Origin: Candidatus Limnocylindrales bacterium
GTDB lineage: Bacteria > Chloroflexota > Limnocylindria > Limnocylindrales > CSP1-4
Assembly (NCBI GenBank): GCA_035255225.1
Contig: DATEZX010000191.1
Location: forward strand, 1 to 30,797
Length of the DNA: 30,797 bases
Reading direction: 5' to 3'
Shown here: positions 1 to 16,615 of the stretch, in pieces
Numbering within the stretch: the first letter of the stretch is position 1
Layout of the letters: each line of letters starts with the position of its first letter
Notes under the pieces: generated by a model
The model's database searches: none
Seen by the model: the letters and a program-made list of their open reading frames with translations, nothing else
What the model was told of the DNA's origin: nothing
Made by a program: the position numbers and the translations under genes

Positions 1-2
1 GC

Positions 3-962
3 TCAGCCGGCGAGCTTGGCGACCGCCGCCGCCGTGGCGGCGTCGGTCACCAGGACGCGAACGATCCCCGAGCGGAGGGCTGCCAGGATCGCCGGCGCCT
101 TCGACGGCCCGGCCGCGACCGCGAACACGAGCGGGACCCGACGGAGTGCCTCGATCGGGATGGCCAGCGTCCTGGCCGACCACGATTCGAGGAACGTGCC
201 AGCCCGGCCCAGGAAGTGGCAGGCGATGTCACCGACCACGTCGAGCTCGGCGAGCTCGGTTCGCGCCTCCGCGTCGAGGCGATCGATCGCCGTCCGGTAG
301 CCCGGATGGGCATACGGCGCACCACCGATGCCCAGCACCGCCACGTCGAGCGCGTTCCACTCGGCCGCCACCGAGCCGATCGCGGAGTCCTTGAGCAGCG
401 CCTCCTTGGTCGCGGGGCTGTCGAGGACCGCCGGGGCATGGAGCGAGCGGGCCCGGGCGCCGAAGCGCTCGGCCATCCGCCGCGCCAGCTCGTTGCCGTC
501 GAAGAGCTGGTTCTGGATGTCCCAGCCGCCCACGACGGGCACGATCGTCAGGCCCGGGCGGCCGATCGCCGGCAGCGCCGACACGAGGGCCGCCACGGTA
601 TAGCCGGCCGCGATCCCGACCGTGCCCTCGTGCGGCAGGCGGGGAGCGAGATGGTCCGCCGCGGCGAGGCCCGCCAGCCGGGACGCCGCCGCGTCGTCGC
701 CGGCACCGCCAGGGGTGAGCTCGACCTGGACCCCGAACCGGGTCGCGAGCGCTTCGGCGGCCGCTGTGCGGCCGGCCTGCGGCGCCTCGACAGTGATCCG
801 GACGACACCCTGGTCACGCGCGGCGGTCAGGAGCCGCGAGACCTTGGAGATCGAGAATCCCGTGAGGTCGGCGATCTCTGGCTGGTTGAGTGCGCGCTCG
901 TAATACAGCTCCGCCACGAGGCGCATGATGTCCCGGTCCGCAGCCGGCTCGGCTCTGCTCAT
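3..962 (-). CDS. SorC/DeoR(B. subtilis)-family sugar-binding transcriptional regulator, 319 aa
   Basis: N-terminal HTH MRLVAELYYERALNQPEIADLTGFSISKVSRLLTAARDQGVVRITV, then a sugar-phosphate-binding domain (DVAVLGIG, GDIACHF, VAAGPSKAPAILAAL). ATG at 962 follows a GGAGG SD. The 554-aa ORF-track extension upstream is antisense to EIIA and was discarded. Confidence 0.93.
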   Translation of the reverse strand: MSRAEPAADRDIMRLVAELYYERALNQPEIADLTGFSISKVSRLLTAARDQGVVRITVEAPQAGRTAAAEALATRFGVQVELTPGGAGDDAAASRLAGLAAADHLAPRLPHEGTVGIAAGYTVAALVSALPAIGRPGLTIVPVVGGWDIQNQLFDGNELARRMAERFGARARSLHAPAVLDSPATKEALLKDSAIGSVAAEWNALDVAVLGIGGAPYAHPGYRTAIDRLDAEARTELAELDVVGDIACHFLGRAGTFLESWSARTLAIPIEALRRVPLVFAVAAGPSKAPAILAALRSGIVRVLVTDAATAAAVAKLAG

Positions 963-1014
963 CGCCGCCTCCCAACGGCTTCGCGCCGCGCGGCTGTCCG
1001 GGGGTCGCGGAATC

Positions 1015-1044
1015 TTGACAGGCCGCGCGGCTGGACGGTACAAC
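1015..1044 (+). promoter_or_regulatory. Candidate sigma70-type promoter of the PTS operon (TTGACA-N18-TACAAC)
   Basis: Perfect -35 TTGACA at 1015-1020 and imperfect -10 TACAAC at 1039-1044, about 70 bp upstream of the EIIA start. Confidence 0.55.
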
Positions 1045-1059
1045 AGCGGGTGCGCGGGC

Positions 1060-1086
1060 TGCAAACATTGGCCGCAATTTCTTGCA
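1060..1086. promoter_or_regulatory. Operator-like 27-bp imperfect palindrome, copy A (TGCAAACATTGGCCGCAATTTCTTGCA)
   Basis: AT-rich dyad in GC-rich DNA, located between the predicted promoter and the EIIA SD. It matches copy B at 9209-9235 in register. Confidence 0.7.
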
Positions 1087-1112
1087 CCGATGGCAGCTCG
1101 TTGAGGAGAACG

Positions 1113-1520
1113 ATGCGGGGCTTCCGGATCGTGGTGGCCGCCCATGGCGATCTCGCGCCCGGCCTCGTCTCGGCCGCGCAGCTGATCTGCGGCCAGATCG
1201 CCGACCTCGTCGCAGTCAGCCTCGAACCGACCGACTCCCCGGAATCGTTCGCCACGCGGCTGGCCGACGCCGCCCCGGATCCTGACGAGCCGTTGCTCCT
1301 CCTGACCGACCTCGTCGGCGGCACGCCCCACAACGTCGCGTTCGCCCTCGTCCGCCGACGCCCATCGGCGGTCGTCATCTCCGGCGTCAATCTCGCCGTC
1401 CTCATGGAGGCGGCGATGACCGACGAAGCGCTCGGTCCGGCGCTCGTCGAGCGGCTCGTCGAAGCGGGTCGCTCGGCGCTCTCGGACGGAGCCAGCCTGG
1501 TGGCATCCAGGAGCTCGTGA
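1113..1520 (+). CDS. PTS mannose/fructose/sorbose family EIIA, 135 aa
   Basis: IVVAAHGDLA (phospho-His), LTDLVGGTP, GVNLAVLME motifs; GAGGAG SD before ATG 1113. Confidence 0.93.
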   Translation: MRGFRIVVAAHGDLAPGLVSAAQLICGQIADLVAVSLEPTDSPESFATRLADAAPDPDEPLLLLTDLVGGTPHNVAFALVRRRPSAVVISGVNLAVLMEAAMTDEALGPALVERLVEAGRSALSDGASLVASRSS

Positions 1521-1625
1521 GGCCGACCACCGGTCGCACTTGGAGGTGTGCGGACCGGGCCCGTCGGAGCCCGCGACGGCAGGTCTACTAGCGAAGCGGA
1601 TCAGGCATCCGCAGCGGAGGGTTGG

Positions 1626-2102
1626 ATGACCCTGAAGCTCGTCCGCGTGGACGATCGGCTGATCCACGGCCAGGTCGTGGCCATCTGGCTCAAGGCGCTC
1701 GGCGCTCGCCGGATCGTCATCGTCGACGATCGCACGGCCCGCGACGACTTCCTTCGGGAGATCCTCGAGCTGGCGTCACCACCCGGCGTGCCCGTCGAGG
1801 TCCTCGAGGTCGAGCCCGGGATCGCGCGCGTCCGCGGCCTGGTCAACGATCCCGAGCCGGTGTTCGTGCTCATGCGGTCGCCCGTGACCGCCGTCCAGCT
1901 GCGAGAGGCGGGCATCGAGTTCCCGCTGCTCAACGTGGGCGGCATCGGCGCGGGGCCCGGTCGCAAGCCCCTCTACCGCAACATCTCCGCCTCCCCGGAG
2001 GAGATCGCGGCGATGCAGCGACTGGAGGCGATGGGCACGAAGGTCGAGCTCCGGATCGTCGAGAACGACCGGCCCGTGATGTTCTCGTCGGTCAAGGTCT
2101 AG
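1626..2102 (+). CDS. PTS mannose/fructose/sorbose family EIIB, 158 aa
   Basis: RVDDRLIHGQV (phospho-His) and LNVGG motifs; GGAGG SD before ATG 1626. Confidence 0.95.
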   Translation: MTLKLVRVDDRLIHGQVVAIWLKALGARRIVIVDDRTARDDFLREILELASPPGVPVEVLEVEPGIARVRGLVNDPEPVFVLMRSPVTAVQLREAGIEFPLLNVGGIGAGPGRKPLYRNISASPEEIAAMQRLEAMGTKVELRIVENDRPVMFSSVKV

Positions 2103-2133
2103 GAGGTACGGAGGTGTCTCGGAGGTGCAATTC

Positions 2134-3036
2134 ATGCAACCCGTGAACAGCTCGGTCCGAGCTCGTCGGGTTGCCGCCCTGGTAACGCTCGGGGTCCTGG
2201 CCAGCCTCTTCGTGGCCGCCCCGACGATGGCCGCCGACGGCTCTGCGCCGACGGCCGGCATCATCCAGGCGGCGCTCGTGGGACTCGGCTATTACCTGAG
2301 CAACAGCCCGTGGCTCTTCGGTAACGGTGGCTTCTTCGGCCTCTACCGGCCGCTCGTCGCGGGCCTCATCGTCGGCTTCATCTTCGGCGATCCGGTGAAG
2401 GGCGCCGAGATCGGCGCCTCGATCAACCTGCTGTATATCGGCTTCATCTCGGCCGGTGGCTCCATCCCGGCCGACCCGTCGGTCGCCGGCTGGGTCGGCA
2501 CCGCGCTCGCGATGGCGGGCGGTCTCGACGCCTCGTCGGCCATCGCCCTCGGCGTCGCGATCGGCCTGCTCGGCACGATCATCTTCTTCACCCGGATGAG
2601 CGTCGATGCGGTCTTCGCCCACTGGGCGGATGCCCGGGCCGAGGCCGGCGACATCGGCGGGGTGTCCCGGATGAACTGGGTGCCCTCGCAGATCTTCCTG
2701 TTCATCATCAGCTTCATTCCCGCGACCGTCGCGGTCTACGCGGGGTCCCAGGTCGTGGCCGACTGGATCAGTTGGCTCAACACCAACGCGCCCTGGGTCC
2801 TCCACGGCTTCCAGATCGCGGGTGGTCTGCTGCCGGCCCTCGGCATCGCGATGAACATGCGGTTCATCTTCCGGGGAACCGTCGCGGCCTACTTCTTCAT
2901 CGGCTACCTCGTCTCGGTCGCCTCGGCCGGTGGGGTCAACATCGTGATGCTCGCCGTCATCGGCGTTGCCCTCGCGATGCTCCACATCGCGTTCCTTGGC
3001 ACCCGGCCCATGGCACCAAGGGGGGCTGAGGCATGA
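2134..3036 (+). CDS. PTS mannose/fructose/sorbose family EIIC with a signal-peptide-like N-terminal extension
   Basis: RPLVAGLIVGFIFGD, GASINLLYIG-GG-PAD and GGLLPALGIAM motifs; highly hydrophobic. ATG 2134 follows GGAGG; GTG 2125 is an in-frame alternative. Confidence 0.93.
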   Translation: MQPVNSSVRARRVAALVTLGVLASLFVAAPTMAADGSAPTAGIIQAALVGLGYYLSNSPWLFGNGGFFGLYRPLVAGLIVGFIFGDPVKGAEIGASINLLYIGFISAGGSIPADPSVAGWVGTALAMAGGLDASSAIALGVAIGLLGTIIFFTRMSVDAVFAHWADARAEAGDIGGVSRMNWVPSQIFLFIISFIPATVAVYAGSQVVADWISWLNTNAPWVLHGFQIAGGLLPALGIAMNMRFIFRGTVAAYFFIGYLVSVASAGGVNIVMLAVIGVALAMLHIAFLGTRPMAPRGAEA

Positions 3037-3962
3037 CCATGCCCGAGCAAGGCGGGAAGGTCTCCCTGACCCGTGGTGACGTCCAGCGGTCGTTCTGGCT
3101 GTGGACGTTCTTCAGCCATGCCAACTACAACTACGAGCGGCTCCAGGGGACGGCCTTCGCCCAGGCGATGACGCCGATCATCCGGAAGCTCTACAAGGAC
3201 CCCGACGAGATCAAGGCCGCCCTCAAGCGGCACCTGATCTTCTTCAACACCGAGCCGAACGTCGGCGGCGTGATCCACGGCGCGGTCATCGCCATGGAGG
3301 AGGAGCGCGCCAACGGCGCGCCGATCGACGACGACGCGATCAACTCGGTCAAGACCGGGCTCATGGGTCCACTCGCGGGAATCGGCGACTCGATCAGCCA
3401 GGGCACGATCACCCCGATCCTACTCTCGATCGGCATCTCCCTCGCCGCGAGCGGCAACATCCTCGGGCCGGTCCTGTACCTCGTGCTCGAGGTCGGGATC
3501 ATGCTGGCCCTGGCGTACTTCATGTGGATGCAGGGCTACGACCGCGGCCGCACCGGGGTCATCGACATGCTCCGCAGCGGGACGCTCGACCGGTACCTCA
3601 CCGGTGCCGGGGTCCTCGGCAACCTGGTCATGGGCGCCCTGGCCTACCAGTTCGTCCACTTCTACCTGACGTGGACGATCGGGATCGACGCTGGTGGCGG
3701 CAACGTCACCCGGTTCGACCTGAACGCCGACTTCTTCGCCAAGATCATGCCGGGACTCCTGCCGCTGGGCTGGGTCCTGCTGACCTGGTACCTCATCGCC
3801 CGCCGACGGGTCAGCCCGCTGTGGGTCCTGGTCGTCTACATCATCTTCGCGATGATCGCGGCGTACCCGTTCTTCAACGCCGACGCGAACAACCCGTGCG
3901 CGTCGCTCCTCAACCCGTTCTTCCAGCCGGCGGCCGGCTGCCCGCCTCCGGCGCCGCAGTGA
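3033..3962 (+). CDS. PTS mannose/fructose/sorbose family EIID, 309 aa
   Basis: NYERLQG, RHLIFFNTEP and KTGLMGPLAGIGDS motifs; ATGA overlap with the EIIC stop. Confidence 0.95.
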   Translation: MTMPEQGGKVSLTRGDVQRSFWLWTFFSHANYNYERLQGTAFAQAMTPIIRKLYKDPDEIKAALKRHLIFFNTEPNVGGVIHGAVIAMEEERANGAPIDDDAINSVKTGLMGPLAGIGDSISQGTITPILLSIGISLAASGNILGPVLYLVLEVGIMLALAYFMWMQGYDRGRTGVIDMLRSGTLDRYLTGAGVLGNLVMGALAYQFVHFYLTWTIGIDAGGGNVTRFDLNADFFAKIMPGLLPLGWVLLTWYLIARRRVSPLWVLVVYIIFAMIAAYPFFNADANNPCASLLNPFFQPAAGCPPPAPQ

Positions 3963-3990
3963 CCTTCGGCTAGGAACCTCGCTCGCGAAA

Positions 3991-4017
3991 GCGGCCCGGG
4001 CCACCGGCCCGGGCCGC
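3991..4017. other. Perfect 12-bp GC-rich intercistronic stem-loop after EIID
   Basis: GCGGCCCGGGCC-ACC-GGCCCGGGCCGC with no U-tract; could act as a stabiliser or weak terminator. Confidence 0.6.
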
Positions 4018-4081
4018 CGTCTGTCCGGCCGGGCGGCCGCGGCGCCGTCCGGCGCGCCACGTCGAACCTCGGAGGTCCGCC

Positions 4082-5110
4082 ACGCTCCGCCTCGGGATCG
4101 GCGAGCGCTGGGCGATCGCCAGCGCCCTTGCCTACACGATCGTCAACATCACGCTCCGGGTTGCCGCGCCGCACATCGACCCGTTCCTCGGGTCGTTCGT
4201 GCGGCTGCTGCCGCTCGCGGCGCTGTCCTGGCTGGTGGTCCTGCGCTCGGGCGCCCGCGAGGTCCGTCCGTCCCACGCCGCGTTCCTGTCCTGGCGCCTG
4301 ATCGGCTACCTGCTCGCCGGCGGGGCGGCCAGCCTCATCATCGGCAACGTCTTCTATTTCCAGGCCCTGACGAACGGCGGCCTCGGGATCACGATCGGCG
4401 GCGTCCAGGCCGGCTCGATCCTCGGCGGGTTGTGGCTCGGCCTGCTCCTCAACCGTGATCGGCCGACCACCGCCCAGCTCGCAGCCGCGGTCCTGATCGT
4501 GGCCGGCCTGGCCGGGATCGCGATCGCCCAGACCCAGCAGTTCGGCGACCTGTGGTGGCTAGGCCTGGCCTTCGCGATCGGCGCCGGGACGACCTACGCC
4601 CTGGCGAACGTCTTCAGCCGGACGGTCCAGCGCGAACGACCCCTGTTGTTCGTCAGCCAGGCCGTCTCGATGGTCGGCGGCGGCGTCCCGCTGGCGCTGA
4701 TCCTCGTGGGCCGAGTCGCCGCGGGGGAGTCCATCCCGATCGACGGCGGCTCGGTTGCCGCGGTCCTGCTGGCCGGCTGCTTCAACGCGGTGGCCCTGCT
4801 GACCCTGACCCTCGCCGTGCGCGCGGCGACGGTCGCGACCGTCAACACGATCGGCTCGTCGACCGTGGTCCTGAGCTTCATCGCCTCGGTCACGCTGTTC
4901 GGCGAGACGAGCAGCGCACCGATGGTCGCCGGGATCGCGCTCGTGACGGTCGGGATCGTGGTCGCCCAGCTCCGGCGCCGGGCCTCGAGGGGGTCGGCGA
5001 CGGCCCTCCCGGAGGCTGCCACCGCGGAGCCCGCCGCGACCGAGCCCTCGGCGGCTCCCGAGCCGGCCGTGACGGCTACGGAGCCGGCGTCGCCGCCAGC
5101 GGCGAGGTGA
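4082..5110 (+). CDS. EamA/DMT-family transporter; probable non-canonical ACG start (first canonical start is GTG 4199)
   Basis: About 10 hydrophobic segments in two repeats (WAIASALAYTIVNITLR; AFAIGAGTTYALANVFSR); GGAGG SD 6 nt before the in-frame ACG at 4082; Pro/Ala/Glu/Thr-rich C-terminal tail. Confidence 0.8.
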   Translation, partial: TLRLGIGERWAIASALAYTIVNITLRVAAPHIDPFLGSFVRLLPLAALSWLVVLRSGAREVRPSHAAFLSWRLIGYLLAGGAASLIIGNVFYFQALTNGGLGITIGGVQAGSILGGLWLGLLLNRDRPTTAQLAAAVLIVAGLAGIAIAQTQQFGDLWWLGLAFAIGAGTTYALANVFSRTVQRERPLLFVSQAVSMVGGGVPLALILVGRVAAGESIPIDGGSVAAVLLAGCFNAVALLTLTLAVRAATVATVNTIGSSTVVLSFIASVTLFGETSSAPMVAGIALVTVGIVVAQLRRRASRGSATALPEAATAEPAATEPSAAPEPAVTATEPASPPAAR

Positions 5111-5564
5111 TCCGCAGGAAGTAGCCGTCCGGGTCGGCCAGCCGGAAGTCGGTGCAGTTCCACGGCCGGTCCTGGAGGCCCTTCACGATGCTCAGCCCCG
5201 CACGGGCCGCCGCGGCGTGGACGGCATCGACGTCCGAGACCTGGACGACGATCTCGACGCCCGTGCCGCGCGGGATTCGCCCGATGTCGGGCGTGAAGTA
5301 GTGCGGCCCGGCCGAGACGTGGTCGTCGAGCTCGAGGCGGATCCCGACGCCCTCGCGCTCCATCCAGGCGCCCTTCGTCCAGGCGTTGGTCGCCCGGAAG
5401 CCGAGGGCCTCGTAGAACGCCCGGCTGCGGGCCACGTCGCGGACGAACAGCTCGACGATGACCGGGAAGCGCGGCGCCGGCCCGCCGCCCGGCGCCGGCT
5501 CGCCGCCCGGCGCCGGCTCGGGCGACGCAGCGGCCGCGGGCGACGGCGCGCCGTGGAGCGTCAC
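5076..5564 (-). CDS. VOC/glyoxalase/bleomycin-resistance family protein, about 162 aa
   Basis: VELFVRDVARSRAFYEALGF and DRPWNCTDFRLADPDGYFLRI motifs; GTG 4 nt after the ALDH stop; low-complexity N-terminus. Confidence 0.85.
   Translation of the reverse strand: MTLHGAPSPAAAASPEPAPGGEPAPGGGPAPRFPVIVELFVRDVARSRAFYEALGFRATNAWTKGAWMEREGVGIRLELDDHVSAGPHYFTPDIGRIPRGTGVEIVVQVSDVDAVHAAAARAGLSIVKGLQDRPWNCTDFRLADPDGYFLRITSPLAATPAP
5484..5519. repeat. 18-bp perfect tandem duplication encoding EPAPGG x2 in the VOC N-terminus
   Basis: gccgcccggcgccggctc occurs at 5484-5501 and 5502-5519. Confidence 0.8.
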
Positions 5565-5568
5565 CGGG

Positions 5569-7095
5569 TCACCGCCCCGCGTCGGCGATCCGGAACACGA
5601 TCTGCTTGTGCTGCTGGTACTTCTCGATCCCGACCCCACCGTAGCCCGACTGCTTGTAGCCGTGGCCGGGCGCCTCGAGGACGCCGGTCGAGAACCACTG
5701 GTTGACGTAGACCTGGCCGGCCTTGAGGCCGCGCGCCAGGCGCCACCCCCGGTCGAGGTCGCGGGTGAAGACGCCCGCGGAGAGGCCGTAGGTCGTGTCG
5801 TTGGCGATCGCCAGGGCCTCGGCCTCGGTGTCGAACGGCAGGATCGTCGCGACCGGGCCGAAGATCTCCTCGCGCGCGATCCGGCACGTCGGCGTCGCGT
5901 CGACGAAGACCGTCGGCGGGATGTACGCGCCCTTCGAGCGGATCGGGTCGGTGTAGCGAGTGCCGCCGGTCCGAAGCGTGGCCTCGCGCTTGCCGATCGC
6001 GATGTAGTCCCAGACCTTGGCCGCGTGGCTGGCGGCGATGACCGGCCCGAGCTCGGTCGAGGGATCGAGCGGTTCCCCGACCTTCATCGCCTCGGCCTTC
6101 GCGACGAGCGCGTCGACGAAGCGCTCCTGGATCGAGCGTTCCACGAGGATCCGCGAGCCACAGACGCAGATCTGGCCGGTGTTGCCGAAGGCCCCGAGCG
6201 TGCTCCAGAAGACGGCCGTGTCGAGATCCGCGTCGGCGAACACGAGATTCGGGTTCTTGCCGCCGAGCTCGAGCGAGATCCGCTTCACCTGCGAGGCGGC
6301 TGCCTCGAGGATGCGCGAGCCGGTCTCGATGCCGCCGGTCAGGCTGATCATGTCGACCCGTGGGTCGGCGACCAGGGCCTCACCGACGGACCCACCGGGC
6401 CCGGCGAGGACGTTGACCGCGCCCGGCGGGAGGTCGGCCTCCACGAGGAGCTGGGCGACGCGCATGAAGCACAGCGATGCCATCTGCGCGGGCTTGACGA
6501 TCGCGGCATTGCCCGCGGCGAGGATCGCGGCCATGCGCTGGATGCCGGTCCACAGGGGACCGTTCCAGGGCAGGATCTCGACGACCACGCCGAGCGGCTC
6601 GATGAGCTCGTGGTGGACGACCGACGCGTCCGGCATCTCGGCCACCGCGCCGCGGGTCGTCCGGGCCCGGCCGCCGAAGTAGCGCAGCGAGTCAAGGCTG
6701 ATCGAGAGATCCGAGTAGTGGACCGAGCTGATCGGCTTGCCGGCATCGATCGTCTCGAGGAACGCCAGCTCGTCGGCGTGCTTCTCGATGAGGTCGGCGA
6801 TCCGGAGGAGGGCGGCCGCCCGGTCGCGGGCGGTCGTTCGGCCCCACGGCCCCTCGTCGAACGCCTGGCGGGCCGAACCGACCGCGGCCGCGACGTCGTC
6901 GGGGCCGGCCTGCGAGATCTTCGCCACCGGCTCGTTGTCGCGCGGGCTGATGGCCGGGAAGACGGCGCCGTCGGCCGCGGGGGCGAGGCGCCCGCCGATG
7001 AGCAGGGGATAGGGGTCCCTGCTGACGCTCGCCCAGCGCGGGTCAGCGGCCGGATCGAAGGTCGTCGTGGTCGTGGTGGTCGCGTGGGTCTCCAT
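5569..7095 (-). CDS. Aldehyde dehydrogenase, 508 aa, substrate unknown
   Basis: PWNGP, ELGGKNP (catalytic Glu), GQICVCGSR (catalytic Cys) and EEIFGPV motifs; GGAGG SD; poly-Thr N-terminus. Confidence 0.95.
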   Translation of the reverse strand: METHATTTTTTTFDPAADPRWASVSRDPYPLLIGGRLAPAADGAVFPAISPRDNEPVAKISQAGPDDVAAAVGSARQAFDEGPWGRTTARDRAAALLRIADLIEKHADELAFLETIDAGKPISSVHYSDLSISLDSLRYFGGRARTTRGAVAEMPDASVVHHELIEPLGVVVEILPWNGPLWTGIQRMAAILAAGNAAIVKPAQMASLCFMRVAQLLVEADLPPGAVNVLAGPGGSVGEALVADPRVDMISLTGGIETGSRILEAAASQVKRISLELGGKNPNLVFADADLDTAVFWSTLGAFGNTGQICVCGSRILVERSIQERFVDALVAKAEAMKVGEPLDPSTELGPVIAASHAAKVWDYIAIGKREATLRTGGTRYTDPIRSKGAYIPPTVFVDATPTCRIAREEIFGPVATILPFDTEAEALAIANDTTYGLSAGVFTRDLDRGWRLARGLKAGQVYVNQWFSTGVLEAPGHGYKQSGYGGVGIEKYQQHKQIVFRIADAGR

Positions 7096-7185
7096 CTCGG
7101 ACCTCCGATCGGGCAGCGGGGCGCGGGGGACGCTGCGGTGGCGAGGCTACGGCAGATCGCGGGCTGGGGCGCGTGACGATGGTTC

Positions 7186-7224
7186 GGCGCCCGGGCGCGG
7201 CTCCTGGGCCCGCGCCCGGGCGCC
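7186..7224. other. Perfect 15-bp GC-rich intercistronic stem-loop between aldolase and ALDH
   Basis: GGCGCCCGGGCGCGG-N9-CCGCGCCCGGGCGCC, 6 bp downstream of the aldolase stop; no U-tract. Confidence 0.65.
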
Positions 7225-7230
7225 TCGAGA

Positions 7231-7998
7231 TCAGCTGTGGACGAGCTGGCCCGCGGCCTCGAGCGCCTCGTCAACCGAGGCGTCGCCGTGGATGATCGCG
7301 GCGAGGCCCCGGGTGATCCCGGCCGGGTCGGGGTCGCGCCAGATGTTGTTGCCGATCGCGACGCCCGCGACGCCGGCGAGGTTCACCGCGTCATAGACGT
7401 CCTGGTACAGCTCCCGGACGGAGCCCTTCTTGGCGCCGCCGAGGATGACGACCGGGACCATCGCGTACTCGACGACCACCCGCATCGTCTCGGGATCGCC
7501 GGTGTAGAAGGTCTTGATCATGTCGGCGCCGGTCTCGGCCGAGATCCGGGCACCCGCCGCGATCTTGTCGGGCGTGTGCATGTCCATTGCCGCGAAGCCA
7601 CCGGGCACCGACTCGGCGATGTATGGCAGCCCGAACCGGTCCGCGTCGGCCGCGAGGCGGGCCGCCTGGCGGATCGACTCGTCGCCGGTGAACGGGTAGA
7701 GCATCGACTTCACCGCGTCCGCCCCGACCGAGAGGGCGCGCTCGACCGCGACCTCGAGGAAGGGTGGGGTGGTGTCGAACGAGGCGATCGCCGCTGCCGG
7801 GCCGATCTGGTCGCCGAAGGCGATGATCGAGCCGATCGGCGACAGGAAGGCATCCGCGCCGGCCGGGACGACCGAGGCGCACGTCTGGCCGTACTTCGCC
7901 AGCCCGTCGACGGGCGCGTCCATGAACGCGGTGTGGTCCATCGCGACGATGAGGATCCGGCCGTCCTCCTTGAGGAGCCGATGCATCCGGCGCTTCAT
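7231..7998 (-). CDS. Class I (Schiff-base) aldolase, DhnA/LsrF-like family, 255 aa
   Basis: IVAMDH (Asp), GADMIKTFY (Schiff-base Lys), VVILGG, AIGNNIW motifs; GGAGG SD. Confidence 0.88.
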   Translation of the reverse strand: MKRRMHRLLKEDGRILIVAMDHTAFMDAPVDGLAKYGQTCASVVPAGADAFLSPIGSIIAFGDQIGPAAAIASFDTTPPFLEVAVERALSVGADAVKSMLYPFTGDESIRQAARLAADADRFGLPYIAESVPGGFAAMDMHTPDKIAAGARISAETGADMIKTFYTGDPETMRVVVEYAMVPVVILGGAKKGSVRELYQDVYDAVNLAGVAGVAIGNNIWRDPDPAGITRGLAAIIHGDASVDEALEAAGQLVHS

Positions 7999-8040
7999 TC
8001 GCTGTGCCTCCAGTGTGTCGTGCGTCCTGGGTGGGGTCGG

Positions 8041-9114
8041 TCAGATCTCGACGATGACGCGGTACGTGCCGGGCTTGATGGCCTCCTCGAGGGCGGCGGT
8101 CAGCTCGGCGAGCGGGTAGCGGACATCGATGAGCGGGCTGAGGTCGACGAGGCCGTAGCGGACGAGCCGCGCCGCGGTGTAGAAGTCCCGCTTCTCGCCG
8201 GACAGCACGCCGAACACCCCGGTCTCGCGGTTGTGGGTCTCGTTGGGCTTGATCGTGAACTCGGGCTCGGGATGGGCCGCCGCGAAGAGGACGAAGCGGC
8301 CCTTGTCGGACAGCATCGCCCAGCCCTGGTCGTTGGCGCTCTTGTGGCCGATGGCCGCGATGACGGCCTCGGCGCCGCGCCCCTCGGTCAGCTCCTTGAC
8401 CCGGGCGACCGGGTCCTCCTTCGAGCCGTCGATCAGCTCGTCGGCGCCCATCCGCCCGGCCATCGCGAGGCGGCCGGGATCGATCTCGCTGACGATGACC
8501 CGGGCCCCGTGCTGCTTGGCTGCGATGACGTTCATGAGGCCCATCACGCCGGCGCCGAGGACGACGACGTCCTGGCCGACGTAGAGGTCGAGGAGCCGCG
8601 TCGCGTGGATCGCGCAGGACAACGGCTCGGTCAGCGCGGCGACGCCGTACTCGGCATCACCGACGCGGTAGACGCCGTCGGCGGGATGGGTCTTGTACTG
8701 GGCGAAACCGCCCGGCCCCCAGGCCTCGCCGTACTTGACCGAGCCGGCGTAGTGGAGCTTGCAGGCCCGATCCTGACCGGTGTAGCACCAGTGGCACTTG
8801 CCGCACGACGACGAGCCGACGGTCACGCGCTCGCCGACCTTCAGGTCGGTGTACGTCCCCGGGCCGATCGCCGCGACCTCGCCCGCCATCTCGTGGCCGC
8901 CGACGAACGGGAACTTGTTCGCCTGGGCGCCGCTGTAGCTGCGCTGCTCCCAGGTGCAGATCGCGGTGGCGTGGAGTCGGACGAGGATCTCGCCTGGGGC
9001 CGGCTCCGGGATCGGCAGGTCCTGAATCGAGAGGTCGCGGATCCCCGCCATGACCCCGACCTTCATGGTCTCCGTCGTGCCCGCCCGAGGGGCCTCCAAC
9101 ACCGGAGTCGTCAT
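8041..9114 (-). CDS. Zn-dependent medium-chain alcohol/polyol dehydrogenase (sorbitol/iditol DH-like), 357 aa
   Basis: ICTWE, GHEMAG, structural Zn site C-x2-C-x2-C-x7-C (CGKCHWCYTGQDRAC), EPLSCAIH, GAGVMG. ATG 9114; alternative ATG 9066. Confidence 0.92.
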   Translation of the reverse strand: MTTPVLEAPRAGTTETMKVGVMAGIRDLSIQDLPIPEPAPGEILVRLHATAICTWEQRSYSGAQANKFPFVGGHEMAGEVAAIGPGTYTDLKVGERVTVGSSSCGKCHWCYTGQDRACKLHYAGSVKYGEAWGPGGFAQYKTHPADGVYRVGDAEYGVAALTEPLSCAIHATRLLDLYVGQDVVVLGAGVMGLMNVIAAKQHGARVIVSEIDPGRLAMAGRMGADELIDGSKEDPVARVKELTEGRGAEAVIAAIGHKSANDQGWAMLSDKGRFVLFAAAHPEPEFTIKPNETHNRETGVFGVLSGEKRDFYTAARLVRYGLVDLSPLIDVRYPLAELTAALEEAIKPGTYRVIVEI

Positions 9115-9208
9115 GCTCCCCACCCTCCCGGCGCCGCCGCAGCGAATCGTGTCGACGCGGTCCGTCCGCGAGTACGCCGTGCGCGGTGCCGCGGTCCTGC
9201 GGTGCCAG

Positions 9209-9235
9209 TGCAAATCCTTGCAGCAAGGAATAGCA
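9209..9235. promoter_or_regulatory. Operator-like 27-bp palindrome, copy B (TGCAAATCCTTGCAGCAAGGAATAGCA)
   Basis: 11 of 13 arm positions are complementary. Same TGCAAA...GCAA...GCA register as copy A. Immediately downstream of the minus-strand extended -10. Confidence 0.75.
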
Positions 9236-9247
9236 CGCTGCCTGCGG

Positions 9248-9256
9248 ATGATAGCA
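9248..9256 (-). promoter_or_regulatory. Extended -10 promoter (TGnTATCAT) of the dehydrogenase-aldolase-ALDH-VOC operon
   Basis: Minus strand reads TGC TATCAT; the predicted start near 9241 is just upstream of operator B. Confidence 0.6.
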
Positions 9257-9355
9257 GGCTCTTCCAGCGGTCCCGCCATGCCGAACGGCCCGTTTCTCCG
9301 GCGGCTTCGAGGAGTCAGCCCGGCGCGGCGGCGATCGATGGCTCGTCGGGGTCGC

Positions 9356-9384
9356 TTGACGGCCAGATCGCGGGTCCCTAGGAT
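9356..9384 (+). promoter_or_regulatory. Housekeeping promoter TTGACG-N17-TAGGAT, leaderless geometry
   Basis: The -10 ends 8 nt before ATG 9393 and no SD is present. Confidence 0.7.
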
Positions 9385-9392
9385 AGTTGCGT

Positions 9393-9794
9393 ATGCAACA
9401 AGTCATCGATCCGCGGGTGACGCGTGCACTCGCGCATGGCCAGACCATCGACATCACGACCACCGGCCGGCTGACGGGCGCGCCACGCCGCATCGAGATC
9501 GTGTTCCACAACCTCGATGGCCGGATCTACATCTCAGGCATCCCGAACCCGCACCGACAGCGAGCCTGGCTCCGCAACCTGCAGGCAGACCCGCGCCTGA
9601 TGTTCCATCTCAAGGGGCCCGTCGCTGTCGACCTCCCGGCCACGGCCCGCGTGGTCTCGGACCCCGACGAGCGGTGGCCGATCCTCCAGCGGATCGCCCG
9701 AATCTGGCGCCGGGATCCTGAGCCGATGCAGGCCTTCAGCCCGCTCGTCGAAGTCGAGATCGAGGGCTACACCCCGGCCGCGGCGGTCGCCTGA
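9393..9794 (+). CDS. Nitroreductase/deazaflavin(F420)-dependent oxidoreductase family (split beta-barrel), 133 aa
   Basis: IDITTTGRLTGAPRRIEI and WLRNLQADP motifs. Confidence 0.8.
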   Translation: MQQVIDPRVTRALAHGQTIDITTTGRLTGAPRRIEIVFHNLDGRIYISGIPNPHRQRAWLRNLQADPRLMFHLKGPVAVDLPATARVVSDPDERWPILQRIARIWRRDPEPMQAFSPLVEVEIEGYTPAAAVA

Positions 9795-9883
9795 TTCACC
9801 CCGACCCGGTCCCCCGACCGGCGCCGGAGCACGCGGGCACGTTCTCAGAATCCGATTCGGCCAGGGCCCGCATACTCCGTGCC

Positions 9884-10474
9884 ATGGGCTGGCAGCGTTT
9901 CCTCGGGCTTCCGACACGGGGCACTGGCGACGACTCGGGCGCGACCGCTTCCGGCGGAGCTCCCGGCCGGCCCATCGACGAGGCCGCCGACACCGAGACG
10001 GTGCGTCGAATCGTGGGCCGGCTCGAGGCGATGCCGCGCGACGAGGCCCGTTTTCTGGCCGGCTTCGCCTACATCCTGACTCGCGCCGCCGCGGCGGACC
10101 TCGACATCGACGACGCCGAGGAGGGGGTCATCGAGCGCCTCGTCGCCGAGCACGGGCACCTTCCCGAATCGCACGCCGTGCTCGTCAGCCAGATGGCGAA
10201 GAGCCAGTCGCTCCTGTACGGCGGCACCGAGGACTACCTCGTGACCCGCCAGTTCCGGGAGCTCTCGACGGCGCAGCAGCGGCTCGATCTGCTCCGTTGC
10301 TGCTACCTCGTCGGCGCCGCGGACGACGACATCAGCATCGCCGAGTCGGACACGCTCCAGGAGATCGCCGCGGAGCTCGACGTCGATCGCGCCTCGATCA
10401 ACGCCATCCGCCACGAGTTCGAGCCGAAGCTCTCGACGATCAAGGCGATGCTCCGGATGCGCGAGGGGCCCTAG
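9884..10474 (+). CDS. TerB-family (tellurite resistance-like) protein, 196 aa
   Basis: Two TerB-like helical repeats (AAAADLDIDDAEEGVI; VGAADDDISIAESDTLQEIAAEL); CATACT 7 nt before ATG, no SD. Confidence 0.8.
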   Translation: MGWQRFLGLPTRGTGDDSGATASGGAPGRPIDEAADTETVRRIVGRLEAMPRDEARFLAGFAYILTRAAAADLDIDDAEEGVIERLVAEHGHLPESHAVLVSQMAKSQSLLYGGTEDYLVTRQFRELSTAQQRLDLLRCCYLVGAADDDISIAESDTLQEIAAELDVDRASINAIRHEFEPKLSTIKAMLRMREGP

Positions 10475-10501
10475 GGTCGGGAGGGTCGCGCGGGGGATGG
10501 G

Positions 10502-10795
10502 TCAGGCTGGTCGAGCTCGGTCCCCGAGAGCCTCGTCCAGCTCGTCGTTCGAGGGCTCGCGCAGGATCCGGAACGGCGCCGTCGGATCGCCGAACAGGAT
10601 CGTGGGCGTCCGCCAGCCCCCCTCGTTGAGGCGTCGGATGTGGGCGTCGGCCGCCGGGTCCTCGTCGACCCTGCGGTACTCGAATGGCACGCCCCGCGAG
10701 TCGAGGTGGGCGCGCGAGCGTGTCGTGTCCTCGCAGGTGTCGCGCCCGAGGACGAGGATGGGCGGGTAGCCGGGCTGCCGAACGTCGTCGGTCAC
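10502..10795 (-). CDS. Glutaredoxin/mycoredoxin-like protein with a CxxT (CEDT) motif, 97 aa
   Basis: Trx-fold spacing (VLGRDTCEDT; GVPFEYRRVDED; RTPTI with cis-Pro); GGAGG SD. Confidence 0.75.
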   Translation of the reverse strand: MTDDVRQPGYPPILVLGRDTCEDTTRSRAHLDSRGVPFEYRRVDEDPAADAHIRRLNEGGWRTPTILFGDPTAPFRILREPSNDELDEALGDRARPA

Positions 10796-15093: not shown

Positions 15094-16566
15094 TTAGTGG
15101 AGGGTGACCCAGATCGTCTTCTTCTCGGTGTACTGCTCGAGCGCCTCGAGGCCCTTGTCCCGCCCGCCGAAGCCGGACTGCTTGTAGCCGCCGAAGGGCG
15201 TCGTGATGTCGCCCTCGGAGTAGGCGTTCACCCCGACCGTGCCGGCCCGCAGTCCACGGGCGACCCGGAACGCCGCATCGAGATCGCGGGTGTAGACCGA
15301 GGCCGCCAGGCCGTACGAGGTCTCGTTGGCGAGCCGGACGCCCTCCTCCTCGGTGTCGAACGGGATCGTCGAGAGGACCGGCCCGAAGATCTCCTCGCGG
15401 GCGATCGCCATGTCGTTCCGGACGCCGTCGAAGATCGTCGGCGCGACGAAGTAGCCGCCGCTGGCCTCGAGGGTCCGGCCGCCGCCCGTGGCGATGCGAG
15501 CGCCCTCGGCACGGCCCCGCTCGATGTAGCCCAGGACCTTGTCGAGATGCGGCCGCTCGACCATCGGCCCGATCCGCGTCGCCGGGTCCATCGGGTCACC
15601 GACCGGCCAGGCCGCGAGGCCGGCGACCAGTCGCTCGACCAGCTCGTCCTGGACCGAGCGGTGGACGATGAGCCGTGAGCCGCACGAGCAGTTCTCGCCC
15701 ATGTTCATGAGCGCCGCGAAGAGGACCTGCTCGGTCAGGACGTCCCAGGCGGGTGGATCGGCGAGGACGAGCTGGGGCGACTTGCCGCCGCACTCGAGGG
15801 TGACCTCCTTGAGGTTGCTCTCGGCGCTGTAGCGGAGGAACAGCCGGCCGACCTCGGTCGAGCCGGTGAACGTCACCTTGTCGACGGCCATGTGGCGGCC
15901 GAGGGCCGCGCCGGCGGTGCCCCCGGGCCCGGGCACGACGTTGAGGACGCCGTCGGGCAGGCCGGCCTCGCTGGCGAGCTCGGCCAGGCGGATCACCGAG
16001 AGCGAGGTCAGGCGCGACGGCTTGACGACCATCGAGTTCCCGGCCGCGAGTGCCGGGGCGATCTTCCAGGCCGCCATGAGGAGCGGGAAGTTCCACGGCA
16101 CGACGGCGCCGACGACGCCGATCGGCTCACGGACGATGAGCCCGAGGGCGTCCGGCCCGGTCGGGGCGACCGCGTCGAAGACCTTGTCGATGGCCTCCGC
16201 ATACCAGCGGAACGTCTTGACCGTATCCGGCAGGTCGACGTCGCGCGTGTCGGTGATCGGCTTGCCGGCCTCGAGGGCGTCGAGCGTCGCGAGCTCGTCG
16301 GCGTGGGACTCGATCGCGTCGGCGACGTCGAGCAGGATCTTCTTCCGGTTCGCCGGCGCGAGGCGCGACCATCGCCCGTCGTCGAATGACCGGCGGGCCG
16401 CCGCGACCGCGACATCAACGTCGGCTTCGCCGCCGGCGGCGACGTGCGTCAGGACCTGCCCGGTCGCGGGGTTCTCGGTGGCGAAGGTCTCGCCCGAGGC
16501 GGCGTCGACGAACCGGCCGTCGATGAACGCCCTGGTCCGGAAGGTGGGTCCCGCCGCGATGGCCAT
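15094..16566 (-). CDS. Aldehyde dehydrogenase, PuuC (gamma-glutamyl-gamma-aminobutyraldehyde DH)-like, 490 aa
   Basis: VVPWNFPL, FTGSTEVG, LECGGKSP, GENCSCGSR and FGGYKQSGFGGRDKG motifs. Confidence 0.9.
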   Translation of the reverse strand: MAIAAGPTFRTRAFIDGRFVDAASGETFATENPATGQVLTHVAAGGEADVDVAVAAARRSFDDGRWSRLAPANRKKILLDVADAIESHADELATLDALEAGKPITDTRDVDLPDTVKTFRWYAEAIDKVFDAVAPTGPDALGLIVREPIGVVGAVVPWNFPLLMAAWKIAPALAAGNSMVVKPSRLTSLSVIRLAELASEAGLPDGVLNVVPGPGGTAGAALGRHMAVDKVTFTGSTEVGRLFLRYSAESNLKEVTLECGGKSPQLVLADPPAWDVLTEQVLFAALMNMGENCSCGSRLIVHRSVQDELVERLVAGLAAWPVGDPMDPATRIGPMVERPHLDKVLGYIERGRAEGARIATGGGRTLEASGGYFVAPTIFDGVRNDMAIAREEIFGPVLSTIPFDTEEEGVRLANETSYGLAASVYTRDLDAAFRVARGLRAGTVGVNAYSEGDITTPFGGYKQSGFGGRDKGLEALEQYTEKKTIWVTLH

Positions 16567-16615
16567 GCCCTAGTCTGGCACGCCCGGACCGGCCTCCGCG
16601 GCCCCTGGGATCGGG

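Follow-up and report, generated by a model that had tools for sequence, protein, structure and literature searches.

Two convergent operons of a soil Limnocylindria lineage form a conserved mannose-family phosphotransferase system module with an atypical DhnA-type aldolase

The window, which is the whole stretch of DNA analyzed here (30,797 nucleotides), comes from a Candidatus Limnocylindrales bacterium (contig DATEZX010000191.1 of assembly GCA_035255225.1). Positions 3 to 9,256 hold a regulator gene and two convergent operons. One operon encodes the IIA, IIB, IIC and IID components of a mannose-family phosphotransferase system (PTS) followed by an EamA-family transporter; the other encodes a Zn-dependent medium-chain dehydrogenase (MDR), a DhnA-type class I aldolase, an aldehyde dehydrogenase (ALDH) and a VOC-family protein. 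Comparison with related genomes confirmed that these genes form a real and conserved catabolic unit. It has a PTS of the known mannose family and a regulator of the known SorC family, combined with an atypical aldolase. The module is conserved across two phyla and has been seen only in uncultured organisms. Taken as a whole, it may be a self-contained catabolic module for one carbohydrate-like substrate, and the chances appear about even that this scheme holds with the steps set out below.

In the proposed pathway, HPr and enzyme I (EI) would hand the phosphate of phosphoenolpyruvate on via IIA (His11) and IIB (His14), and the IIC/IID permease would import and phosphorylate the substrate, most likely a polyol or a ketose. 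The Zn-dehydrogenase would turn the phosphorylated compound into a ketose monophosphate, which the Schiff-base aldolase would cleave to dihydroxyacetone phosphate (DHAP) and an unphosphorylated aldehyde. The ALDH would oxidise the aldehyde to an acid, and EamA would either export this acid or move a related compound through the membrane. The VOC protein would be an optional helper, perhaps in carbonyl detoxification. Such successive action of the MDR, aldolase and ALDH on a phosphorylated polyol or sugar is plausible; the order of the steps, the class of the substrate, DHAP as a product and the direction of EamA transport are what we infer from the genes. A precedent, a mannose-type PTS for the polyol ribitol, is given by the title of a 2013 paper by Bourand et al. 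that PMC6717177 cites.

Reading frames were chosen by codon-position G+C and then named with Pfam and NCBIfam. All the genes named in an earlier, sequence-only reading of this DNA were borne out by these searches, in the order and orientation that it gave. It had also stated that a kinase, isomerase, deacetylase, deaminase and glycosidase are missing, and indeed Pfam detected no domain of any of these in 1-9400. Literature searches found no description of the module's gene set.

Conservation and Linkage of the Two Operons

Related loci were mapped by tblastn with eleven query proteins, the candidate loci being taken from an aldolase-profile scan of species-representative genomes. The whole set is collinear in two genomes of the same genus (G002 and G006). 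In about 20 further Chloroflexota species, where the aldolase may be as little as 59% identical, the tblastn map showed MDR-aldolase-ALDH(-VOC) facing a convergent EamA-IID-IIC-IIB-IIA group, after which comes the regulator. Flanks were compared where neighbouring genes were listed; in the locus L035, whose aldolase is 61% identical, the flanking genes differ from those of the window. Three Actinomycetota metagenome-assembled genomes (MAGs) have the genes in a single co-directional series, IIA-IIB-IIC-IID-EamA-MDR-aldolase-ALDH. The two Actinomycetota loci examined in detail carry HPr and EI directly after the ALDH, and the regulator is divergent upstream. The combination of PTS, aldolase and MDR, for which a gene-neighbourhood search had been suggested from the sequence, thus recurs across Chloroflexota and Actinomycetota. 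The suggestion that the two convergent operons are one co-regulated unit stands on this synteny, on the single-operon fusion in Actinomycetota and on an operator that both promoters share and that occurs nowhere else in the assembly.

Public records place near-identical proteins in Chloroflexota or Candidatus Limnocylindrales MAGs, with hypothetical or generic annotation. No cultured carrier of the module was found among the exact and near matches, all of which were MAG or metagenome proteins. On a long Chloroflexota contig (L042, 10801-11124) an ALDH match is followed almost immediately by IID, with no EamA or VOC match; this arrangement may be a deletion derivative of the module.

Regulator, Promoters and Operators

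The regulator gene (3-962, minus strand) encodes a SorC/DeoR-type transcriptional regulator of 319 aa. It has an N-terminal helix-turn-helix and a C-terminal PF04198 sugar-phosphate-binding domain (E=2e-47), the combination that marks the SorC/DeoR(Bsu)/LsrR/CggR family. In NCBIfam it scores best with B. subtilis DeoR and with LsrR, far short of either cut-off. The regulator adjoins IIA in all complete related loci.

A promoter-like element, read from the sequence, precedes the PTS operon at 1015-1044 on the plus strand. It consists of TTGACA (1015-1020), an 18-nt spacer and TACAAC (1039-1044), and the TTGACA-N18-TATACA arrangement is kept in orthologous intergenic regions. For the MDR operon a -10-like TATCAT is present at 9248-9253 on the minus strand. 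A simple consensus promoter scan listed neither of the proposed promoters, just that of a neighbouring F420-family gene; the PTS promoter was skipped because the last base of its -10 element is not T.

As had been claimed, an operator-like motif is common to both operons, with the core GCAA-N4-TTGC at 1074 and 9210. Candidate operator A (1060-1086) lies 16 nt downstream of the -10 element and comprises a TGCAA half-site and the palindrome GCAA-N4-TTGCA, with the core GCAATTTCTTGC at 1074. Candidate operator B (9209-9235) lies downstream of the -10-like TATCAT and comprises the perfect palindrome TGCAA-N4-TTGCA and an adjacent GCAAG half-site. The whole assembly has two GCAA-N4-TTGC sites, both at the module promoters, against about 15 expected from base composition, and it has the perfect TGCAA-N4-TTGCA at 9209 alone. 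Of the 41 related loci, 35 have the core upstream of the MDR gene; for the region upstream of IIA the count is 12 of 21, and only 1% of shuffled sequences contain it. The arrangement of half-site plus palindrome is also conserved (upstream of the MDR gene in 33 of the 41 loci). Two of the six loci without the core upstream of the MDR gene are Actinomycetota loci, where that gene is operon-internal. The remaining Chloroflexota IIA loci have a related TGCAAGAAT...ATTCT arrangement.

These features suggest a simple regulatory circuit. The divergent SorC-type protein is the probable operator-binding protein of both sites; it would repress both promoters via TGCAA-N4-TTGCA-type operators just downstream of the -10 elements, and it would presumably be released by a phosphorylated intermediate. 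No third operator was seen upstream of the HPr gene on its contig, C205. When the genome was searched for groups of three exact half-sites, the criterion proved too strict to be informative.

Two loci differ in their palindromes. In the regulator-IIA intergenic region of the Actinomycetota locus L071 a different palindrome, TGTGAAAATTCTTTCACA, replaces TGCAA-N4-TTGCA, and L075 has two tandem TGCAAG-N3-TTGCA palindromes. It seems that the operator sequence diverged together with the regulator, which is only 33-35% identical.

The Mannose-Family PTS and Its Phosphorelay

Four mannose-family (TC 4.A.6) components are encoded consecutively on the plus strand at 1113-3962. IIA (135 aa, 1113-1520) was translated from the plus frame and has NCBIfam matches to AgaF and EIIA-man; it is the single match of its family, PF03610, in the assembly. 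IIB (158 aa, 1626-2102) belongs to the mannose/sorbose family (PF03830, E=3e-40). IIC (303 aa, 2125-3036; PF03609, E=4e-59) bears an N-terminal extension of about 45 aa, and its orthologues are 318-339 aa long. IID (309 aa, 3033-3962; PF03613, E=2e-85) is a subunit that only the mannose family has, and in NCBIfam it falls short of every subfamily and equivalog cut-off.

The phospho-acceptor residues could be placed by alignment with solved structures. His11 of IIA, in the motif AAHGD, aligns with the His of the SHG/AHG motifs of IIA proteins in the Protein Data Bank (PDB). In IIB the acceptor is His14, not Cys, in DDRLIHGQV, a motif identical to that of the sorbose-specific IIB of K. pneumoniae (1NRZ), which is also the best PDB match (E=1.5e-30).

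EI and HPr had been reported missing from the window, and a check of the genome found both outside it, on contig C205. There the EI gene is interrupted by the contig end. The end of C205 and the start of the window's contig (C191) are collinear on the G002 locus of the same genus, with a gap of about 600 nt, which is about the length needed for the missing 3' end of the EI gene. Because the two contig ends map collinearly, the HPr and EI genes very probably run toward the regulator gene, which in turn is divergent from IIA and the genes that follow it.

The general PTS proteins accompany the module in other genomes of the genus as well. IID is carried by 17 of the 61 genomes sampled, and all 17 have HPr, which is present in only 6 of the 44 genomes without IID. 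In at least 11 genomes of the genus HPr lies on the same contig about 5 kb from IID. Across Chloroflexota, where sugar uptake by a PTS is uncommon, IID is rare (25 of 401 sampled genomes). As the module's enzyme II is the only one found in the assembly, the whole phosphorelay of this soil lineage seems to be devoted to one substrate.

An Atypical DhnA-Type Aldolase

The aldolase gene (7231-7998, minus strand) encodes a class I, Schiff-base enzyme of 255 aa (PF01791) from an atypical DhnA-type subfamily. The nearest structures are M. jannaschii MJ0400 (ADH synthase; match E=3e-34, profile E=7e-46), T. tenax fructose-bisphosphate aldolase (FBPA) and LsrF. The Schiff-base Lys162 (IKTFY) and the pair Asp21-His22 (AMDH) align with those of all three and are invariant in the subfamily. 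The phosphate-site residues His22, Gly187, Gly188 and Gly216 are retained. The Arg of the GRN motif is replaced by Asn217; most members of the subfamily have Asn or Thr here and one has Arg. The Tyr-Pro-Arg segment of FBP aldolases and ADH synthases is missing, with Val131 in place of Tyr and Gly133 in place of Arg ([VI]-P-G in the subfamily), and LsrF likewise lacks it. An invariant Glu129 occupies the position of T. tenax Trp144, and it may take over the acid/base role.

In the DhnA fold a single phosphate is bound by His, Gly-Gly, Gly and Arg; the Tyr is the proton donor in the archaeal enzymes only, and LsrF, which is also without that Tyr, acts on a monophosphate (PMC2728841). With no kinase in the module, the Y-P-R segment absent as in LsrF and most of the phosphate site retained, the aldolase fits a ketose monophosphate as its substrate better than a bisphosphate.

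More distant relatives place the aldolase beside a kinase. Aldolases 40-47% identical to that of the window are paired with an MDR and a xylulokinase-like FGGY kinase. Such MDR-aldolase-FGGY kinase triads (L097, 7957-11172; L098, 9001-12382) come from the cultured alphaproteobacterium Ferruginivarius sediminum and from a Limnocylindria MAG. A 67%-identical aldolase is part of a separate conserved cluster (L038 and L099, both 1-10768) with the order Gfo/Idh/MocA oxidoreductase, MFS transporter, FGGY kinase, second DhnA-type protein, Opp-type ABC transporter and aldolase; it has the look of a counterpart that handles a related substrate by means of a kinase and an ABC transporter. A dehydrogenase, a phosphorylation step and an aldolase of this kind appear, by gene neighbourhood, as a recurring triad. 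Since the distant MDR and aldolase pairs adjoin an FGGY kinase, the PTS probably replaces transporter and kinase in this module.

The Two Dehydrogenases

The MDR gene (8041-9114, minus strand) encodes a Zn-dependent protein of 357 aa (PF08240 and PF00107) that belongs to the polyol/threonine dehydrogenase group. Its best NCBIfam matches, tdh and IolM, are below cut-offs, and its PDB matches are threonine dehydrogenase and sorbitol dehydrogenase. The sequence has Cys/His/Glu zinc ligands, a four-Cys structural zinc site and GAGVMG, a GxGxxG motif with an acidic residue after it. The start is most likely ATG 9114, judged from a ribosome-binding site and from orthologue lengths of 352-362 aa.

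The ALDH (508 aa, 5569-7095, minus strand; PF00171, E=2e-146) is NAD(P)-dependent and of a generic class 1/2/9 type, with the Glu of ELGGKNP and the Cys of GQICVCG. The best NCBIfam matches are BADH, HpaE and ABALDH, and the PDB matches are generic as well.

EamA, a Hairpin and the VOC Protein

The EamA/DMT-family membrane transporter (PF00892) is encoded in an open frame at 3974-5110 on the plus strand. Its orthologues start, with ATG or GTG, six codons before a conserved GIGERW. At the equivalent position the window has an in-frame ACG (4082), preceded by GGAGG at 4071-4075. Initiation at GTG 4199 would delete the conserved first helix (GERWAI...), which is encoded upstream of that codon. 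Either the ACG start is used, or the gene is damaged in the genome, or the assembly is in error. Export of an acid by EamA is a guess.

Between IID and EamA there is a GC-rich hairpin, GGCCCGGGCC-ACC-GGCCCGGGCC (3993-4015, plus strand), without a T-run. Similar hairpins occupy the same position in the same-genus loci L029 and L030, and the element may set the level of EamA by attenuation or through mRNA stability.

The VOC/glyoxalase-family protein (5076-5564, minus strand; PF00903, E=1e-13) has an uncertain start and a Pro/Ala-rich N-terminus. It is the sole variable member of the module: tblastn did not detect it in L051, L052, L054, L055, L074 and L075, and in L062 and L067 it occurs at the opposite flank of the MDR gene. 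Being absent or moved in several loci, it is an accessory member.

Transcripts from Soil and Significance

The window's DNA is present in soil metagenomes. Contigs of three soil metatranscriptome libraries (X16, X18 and X19) with 90-99% identity fall on IIA-IID, the ALDH, the aldolase and the MDR. These contigs leave the regulator gene and the EamA-VOC stretch almost bare, which is not so in a DNA run of the source study. This is weak evidence that both operons are transcribed in soil.

Once known, the substrate would give the mannose-family PTS repertoire a further specificity and possibly a ketose-monophosphate aldolase chemistry not seen before. A sizeable DhnA-aldolase subfamily would thereby receive a function, and a carbon source of abundant soil Limnocylindria would be indicated. 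The clean two-operator regulon offers a ready inducible switch and a simple read-out for ligand screening.

Comparison with Known Systems

The sequence-only reading had held that the gene set matches no sor, dga, gfr, aga or lsr locus. This was upheld, the rtl set being no match either, and no close orthologues of the whole set were found that are already assigned to a characterised pathway. The module stands outside the sor, L. casei ribitol, lsr, dga, gfr and aga systems because their defining enzymes are missing and others are added.

The sor systems of K. pneumoniae and Lactobacillus casei resemble the module in several ways. A SorC-family regulator is transcribed away from the genes of a mannose-family PTS whose IIA and IIB are separate, a Zn-MDR is encoded with the PTS, and the module's IIB is nearest to the sorbose IIB structure 1NRZ. 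SorE is an MDR that acts as sorbose-1-phosphate reductase, and with the glucitol-6-phosphate dehydrogenase it leads to fructose-6-phosphate. However, SorD/SorF, an SDR-family glucitol-6-phosphate dehydrogenase, is found neither in the module nor in its conserved relatives, and the DhnA-type aldolase, ALDH and EamA that are core to the module are not part of sor. At the D-ribitol locus of L. casei BL23 a mannose-type PTS takes up a polyol and a polyol-phosphate dehydrogenase acts next, which is the logic proposed for the module. The module differs in having a class I aldolase and an ALDH, with no epimerase or phosphoketolase. These last two reportedly catalyze the downstream ribitol steps in the work of Bourand et al. 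from 2013.

The lsr systems of E. coli and Salmonella have in common with the module a SorC-family repressor and a DhnA-fold enzyme that lacks Y-P-R and takes a monophosphate substrate. They use the LsrACDB ABC transporter and the FGGY kinase LsrK where the module has a PTS; the module has no LsrG and contains an ALDH and an MDR. Neither 1-9400 nor the related PTS-linked loci hold an FGGY kinase, an ABM-fold isomerase or an ABC transporter. The dga, gfr and aga systems differ in that the module has no DgaE deaminase/dehydratase, no GfrE/F SIS-domain deglycase, no AgaA/AgaS and no class II aldolase domain, and Aga-type NCBIfam equivalogs score well below their cut-offs.

Compared with T. tenax FBPA and MJ0400, the module's aldolase has the same fold family, Schiff-base Lys, Asp-His pair and Gly-Gly phosphate loop. 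It differs in the replacement of Tyr by Val, of Arg by Gly and of the GRN Arg by Asn or Thr, and in the Glu at the Trp144 position; its genomic context is catabolic rather than that of glycolysis or aromatic amino acid biosynthesis.

In fucose and rhamnose catabolism and in the sulfoglycolytic Embden-Meyerhof-Parnas (sulfo-EMP) pathway, an aldolase cleaves a ketose-1-phosphate to DHAP and a C3 aldehyde, an ALDH oxidises the aldehyde and a dedicated exporter may remove the product. The likeness to the module as proposed is in this overall half-molecule logic. The enzymes are not orthologous, the module has neither an isomerase nor a kinase, and phosphorylation would be by the PTS. Genes for a sulfoquinovosidase and for sulfoquinovose, fucose or rhamnose isomerase are likewise missing from the module.

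Alternative Pathways

The main rival is a ketose route without a polyol, which is possible though rather unlikely. The PTS would import a sorbose-like or 6-substituted (deoxy, sulfo, amino) ketose and phosphorylate it at C1, and the aldolase would cleave the ketose-1-phosphate directly. Oxidation by the ALDH and reduction by the MDR would then be alternative fates of the aldehyde, with EamA excreting an acid or a diol. The sorbose PTS of the Klebsiella sor system phosphorylates C1, and the module's IIB is nearest, among solved structures, to a sorbose-specific IIB (1NRZ). Lactaldehyde in the fucose catabolism of E. coli is either oxidised or reduced. The lack of an isomerase and a kinase also agrees with such a route, as does the nearly constant presence of a transporter from a mostly exporter family. 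However, the MDR adjoins the aldolase in every context, including the kinase-linked L097 with no listed ALDH, so that an MDR making the aldolase substrate fits better than one on a redox side branch. Moreover, the MDR is of the polyol/threonine dehydrogenase group, which acts on secondary alcohols, and not of the aldehyde reductases. The last two points also tell against a serial scheme, where MDR and ALDH would take a terminal alcohol group of the phosphorylated substrate first to the aldehyde and then to the acid, and where the aldolase would cleave a phosphorylated keto-acid or act earlier: the kinase-linked pair of L097 has no listed ALDH nearby, and the MDR resembles secondary-alcohol dehydrogenases. 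MDR and ALDH pairs commonly oxidise primary alcohols to acids, and the gene order MDR-aldolase-ALDH leaves the order of reactions unfixed. Yet characterised DhnA-type enzymes use DHAP-type ketose phosphates or P-HPD (PMC2728841), and the serial scheme is improbable.

Two further explanations were rejected. In an Lsr-like system the PTS would phosphorylate an AI-2-like diketo compound, and the aldolase homologue would be an LsrF-type CoA-dependent thiolase under an LsrR-like repressor. There are matches of the regulator to LsrR (E=3e-23) and of the aldolase to the LsrF model (E=3e-24), and the aldolase shares with LsrF the loss of the Y-P-R segment and its Tyr donor. Both matches are nevertheless far below cut-offs, and the DeoR and ADH-synthase models score higher. 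The phosphate-binding Arg254 and the Asp251 of LsrF are not conserved in the aldolase, LsrK, LsrG and the LsrACDB transporter are missing from the module, and a route through an acetyl-CoA-forming thiolase would have no need of the core ALDH and MDR and leaves them unexplained. Membership in the Lsr group is therefore very improbable. That the operons are unrelated neighbours which share a motif by chance is still harder to credit. They are separate, convergent transcription units in this genome, as unrelated neighbours might be; but about 20 species keep the synteny, with differing flanks wherever neighbours were listed, Actinomycetota have the genes fused into one operon, and the operator core is confined in the assembly to these two promoters and conserved in orthologues, all of which speaks against coincidence.

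A further reading, tentative and of low probability, is a PTS-driven 'split-substrate' pathway. Here the substrate would be a polyol, or else a ketose with a 6-substituent (deoxy, sulfo or amino), and the PTS would phosphorylate it beside the future keto carbon. The new DhnA-aldolase subfamily, with Glu for the Tyr donor and no second phosphate site, would release DHAP and an unphosphorylated aldehyde, and the co-transcribed EamA would excrete the ALDH product. The module would then do with a PTS what fucose-type or sulfoglycolytic pathways do in their half-molecule catabolism, and it would have spread between Chloroflexota and Actinomycetota as a complete package with its own HPr and EI.

Several observations weigh against the proposed pathway. 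The NCBIfam equivalog cut-off is reached by none of the ten proteins, which bears on the substrate assignment, and PDB sequence searches gave no equivalog-level assignment. With its Tyr donor and the Arg of the GRN phosphate motif absent, the aldolase may possibly catalyze a different reaction. Threonine and sorbitol dehydrogenases, the nearest relatives of the MDR, work on substrates that carry no phosphate. A comparison of PTS-linked with kinase-linked MDRs for phosphate-binding residues, with six outgroup sequences and no coordinates, gave PTS-specific Arg, His and Lys positions that are no more than suggestive. The window's EamA has no canonical start at the orthologue position, the first being GTG 4199, and the EamA family includes both exporters and importers. 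The assembly yielded no further EIIC, no EIIA(Fru/Ntr) and no second EIIA-Man, an absence limited by its 86% completeness. The metatranscriptome evidence consists of assembled contigs without strand information, from libraries that may contain DNA.

Source Assembly and Neighbouring Genes

The window is contig C191 of a MAG of 2.4 Mb that is 86% complete and has 72% G+C. A search of Rfam found no RNA element in 1-9800. The 12 kb beyond the module hold unrelated genes for TerB, glutaredoxin, PAC2, an FAD oxidoreductase, LytR, a second ALDH, SpoIID and a GGDEF protein.

Beside the MDR promoter region is a gene of the F420H2-dependent quinone reductase family (9387-9794, plus strand), with a sigma-70-like promoter, TTGACG-17-TAGGAT, at 9356-9384. 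Its homologue was not detected in most mapped loci, the exceptions being the G015 locus (L032/L041), where it lies about 1 kb from the MDR gene, and L042, where it lies several kb away. The second ALDH gene (491 aa, 15094-16569, minus strand) is unrelated to that of the module and lies 6 kb downstream amid LytR_cpsA_psr, SpoIID and GGDEF genes.

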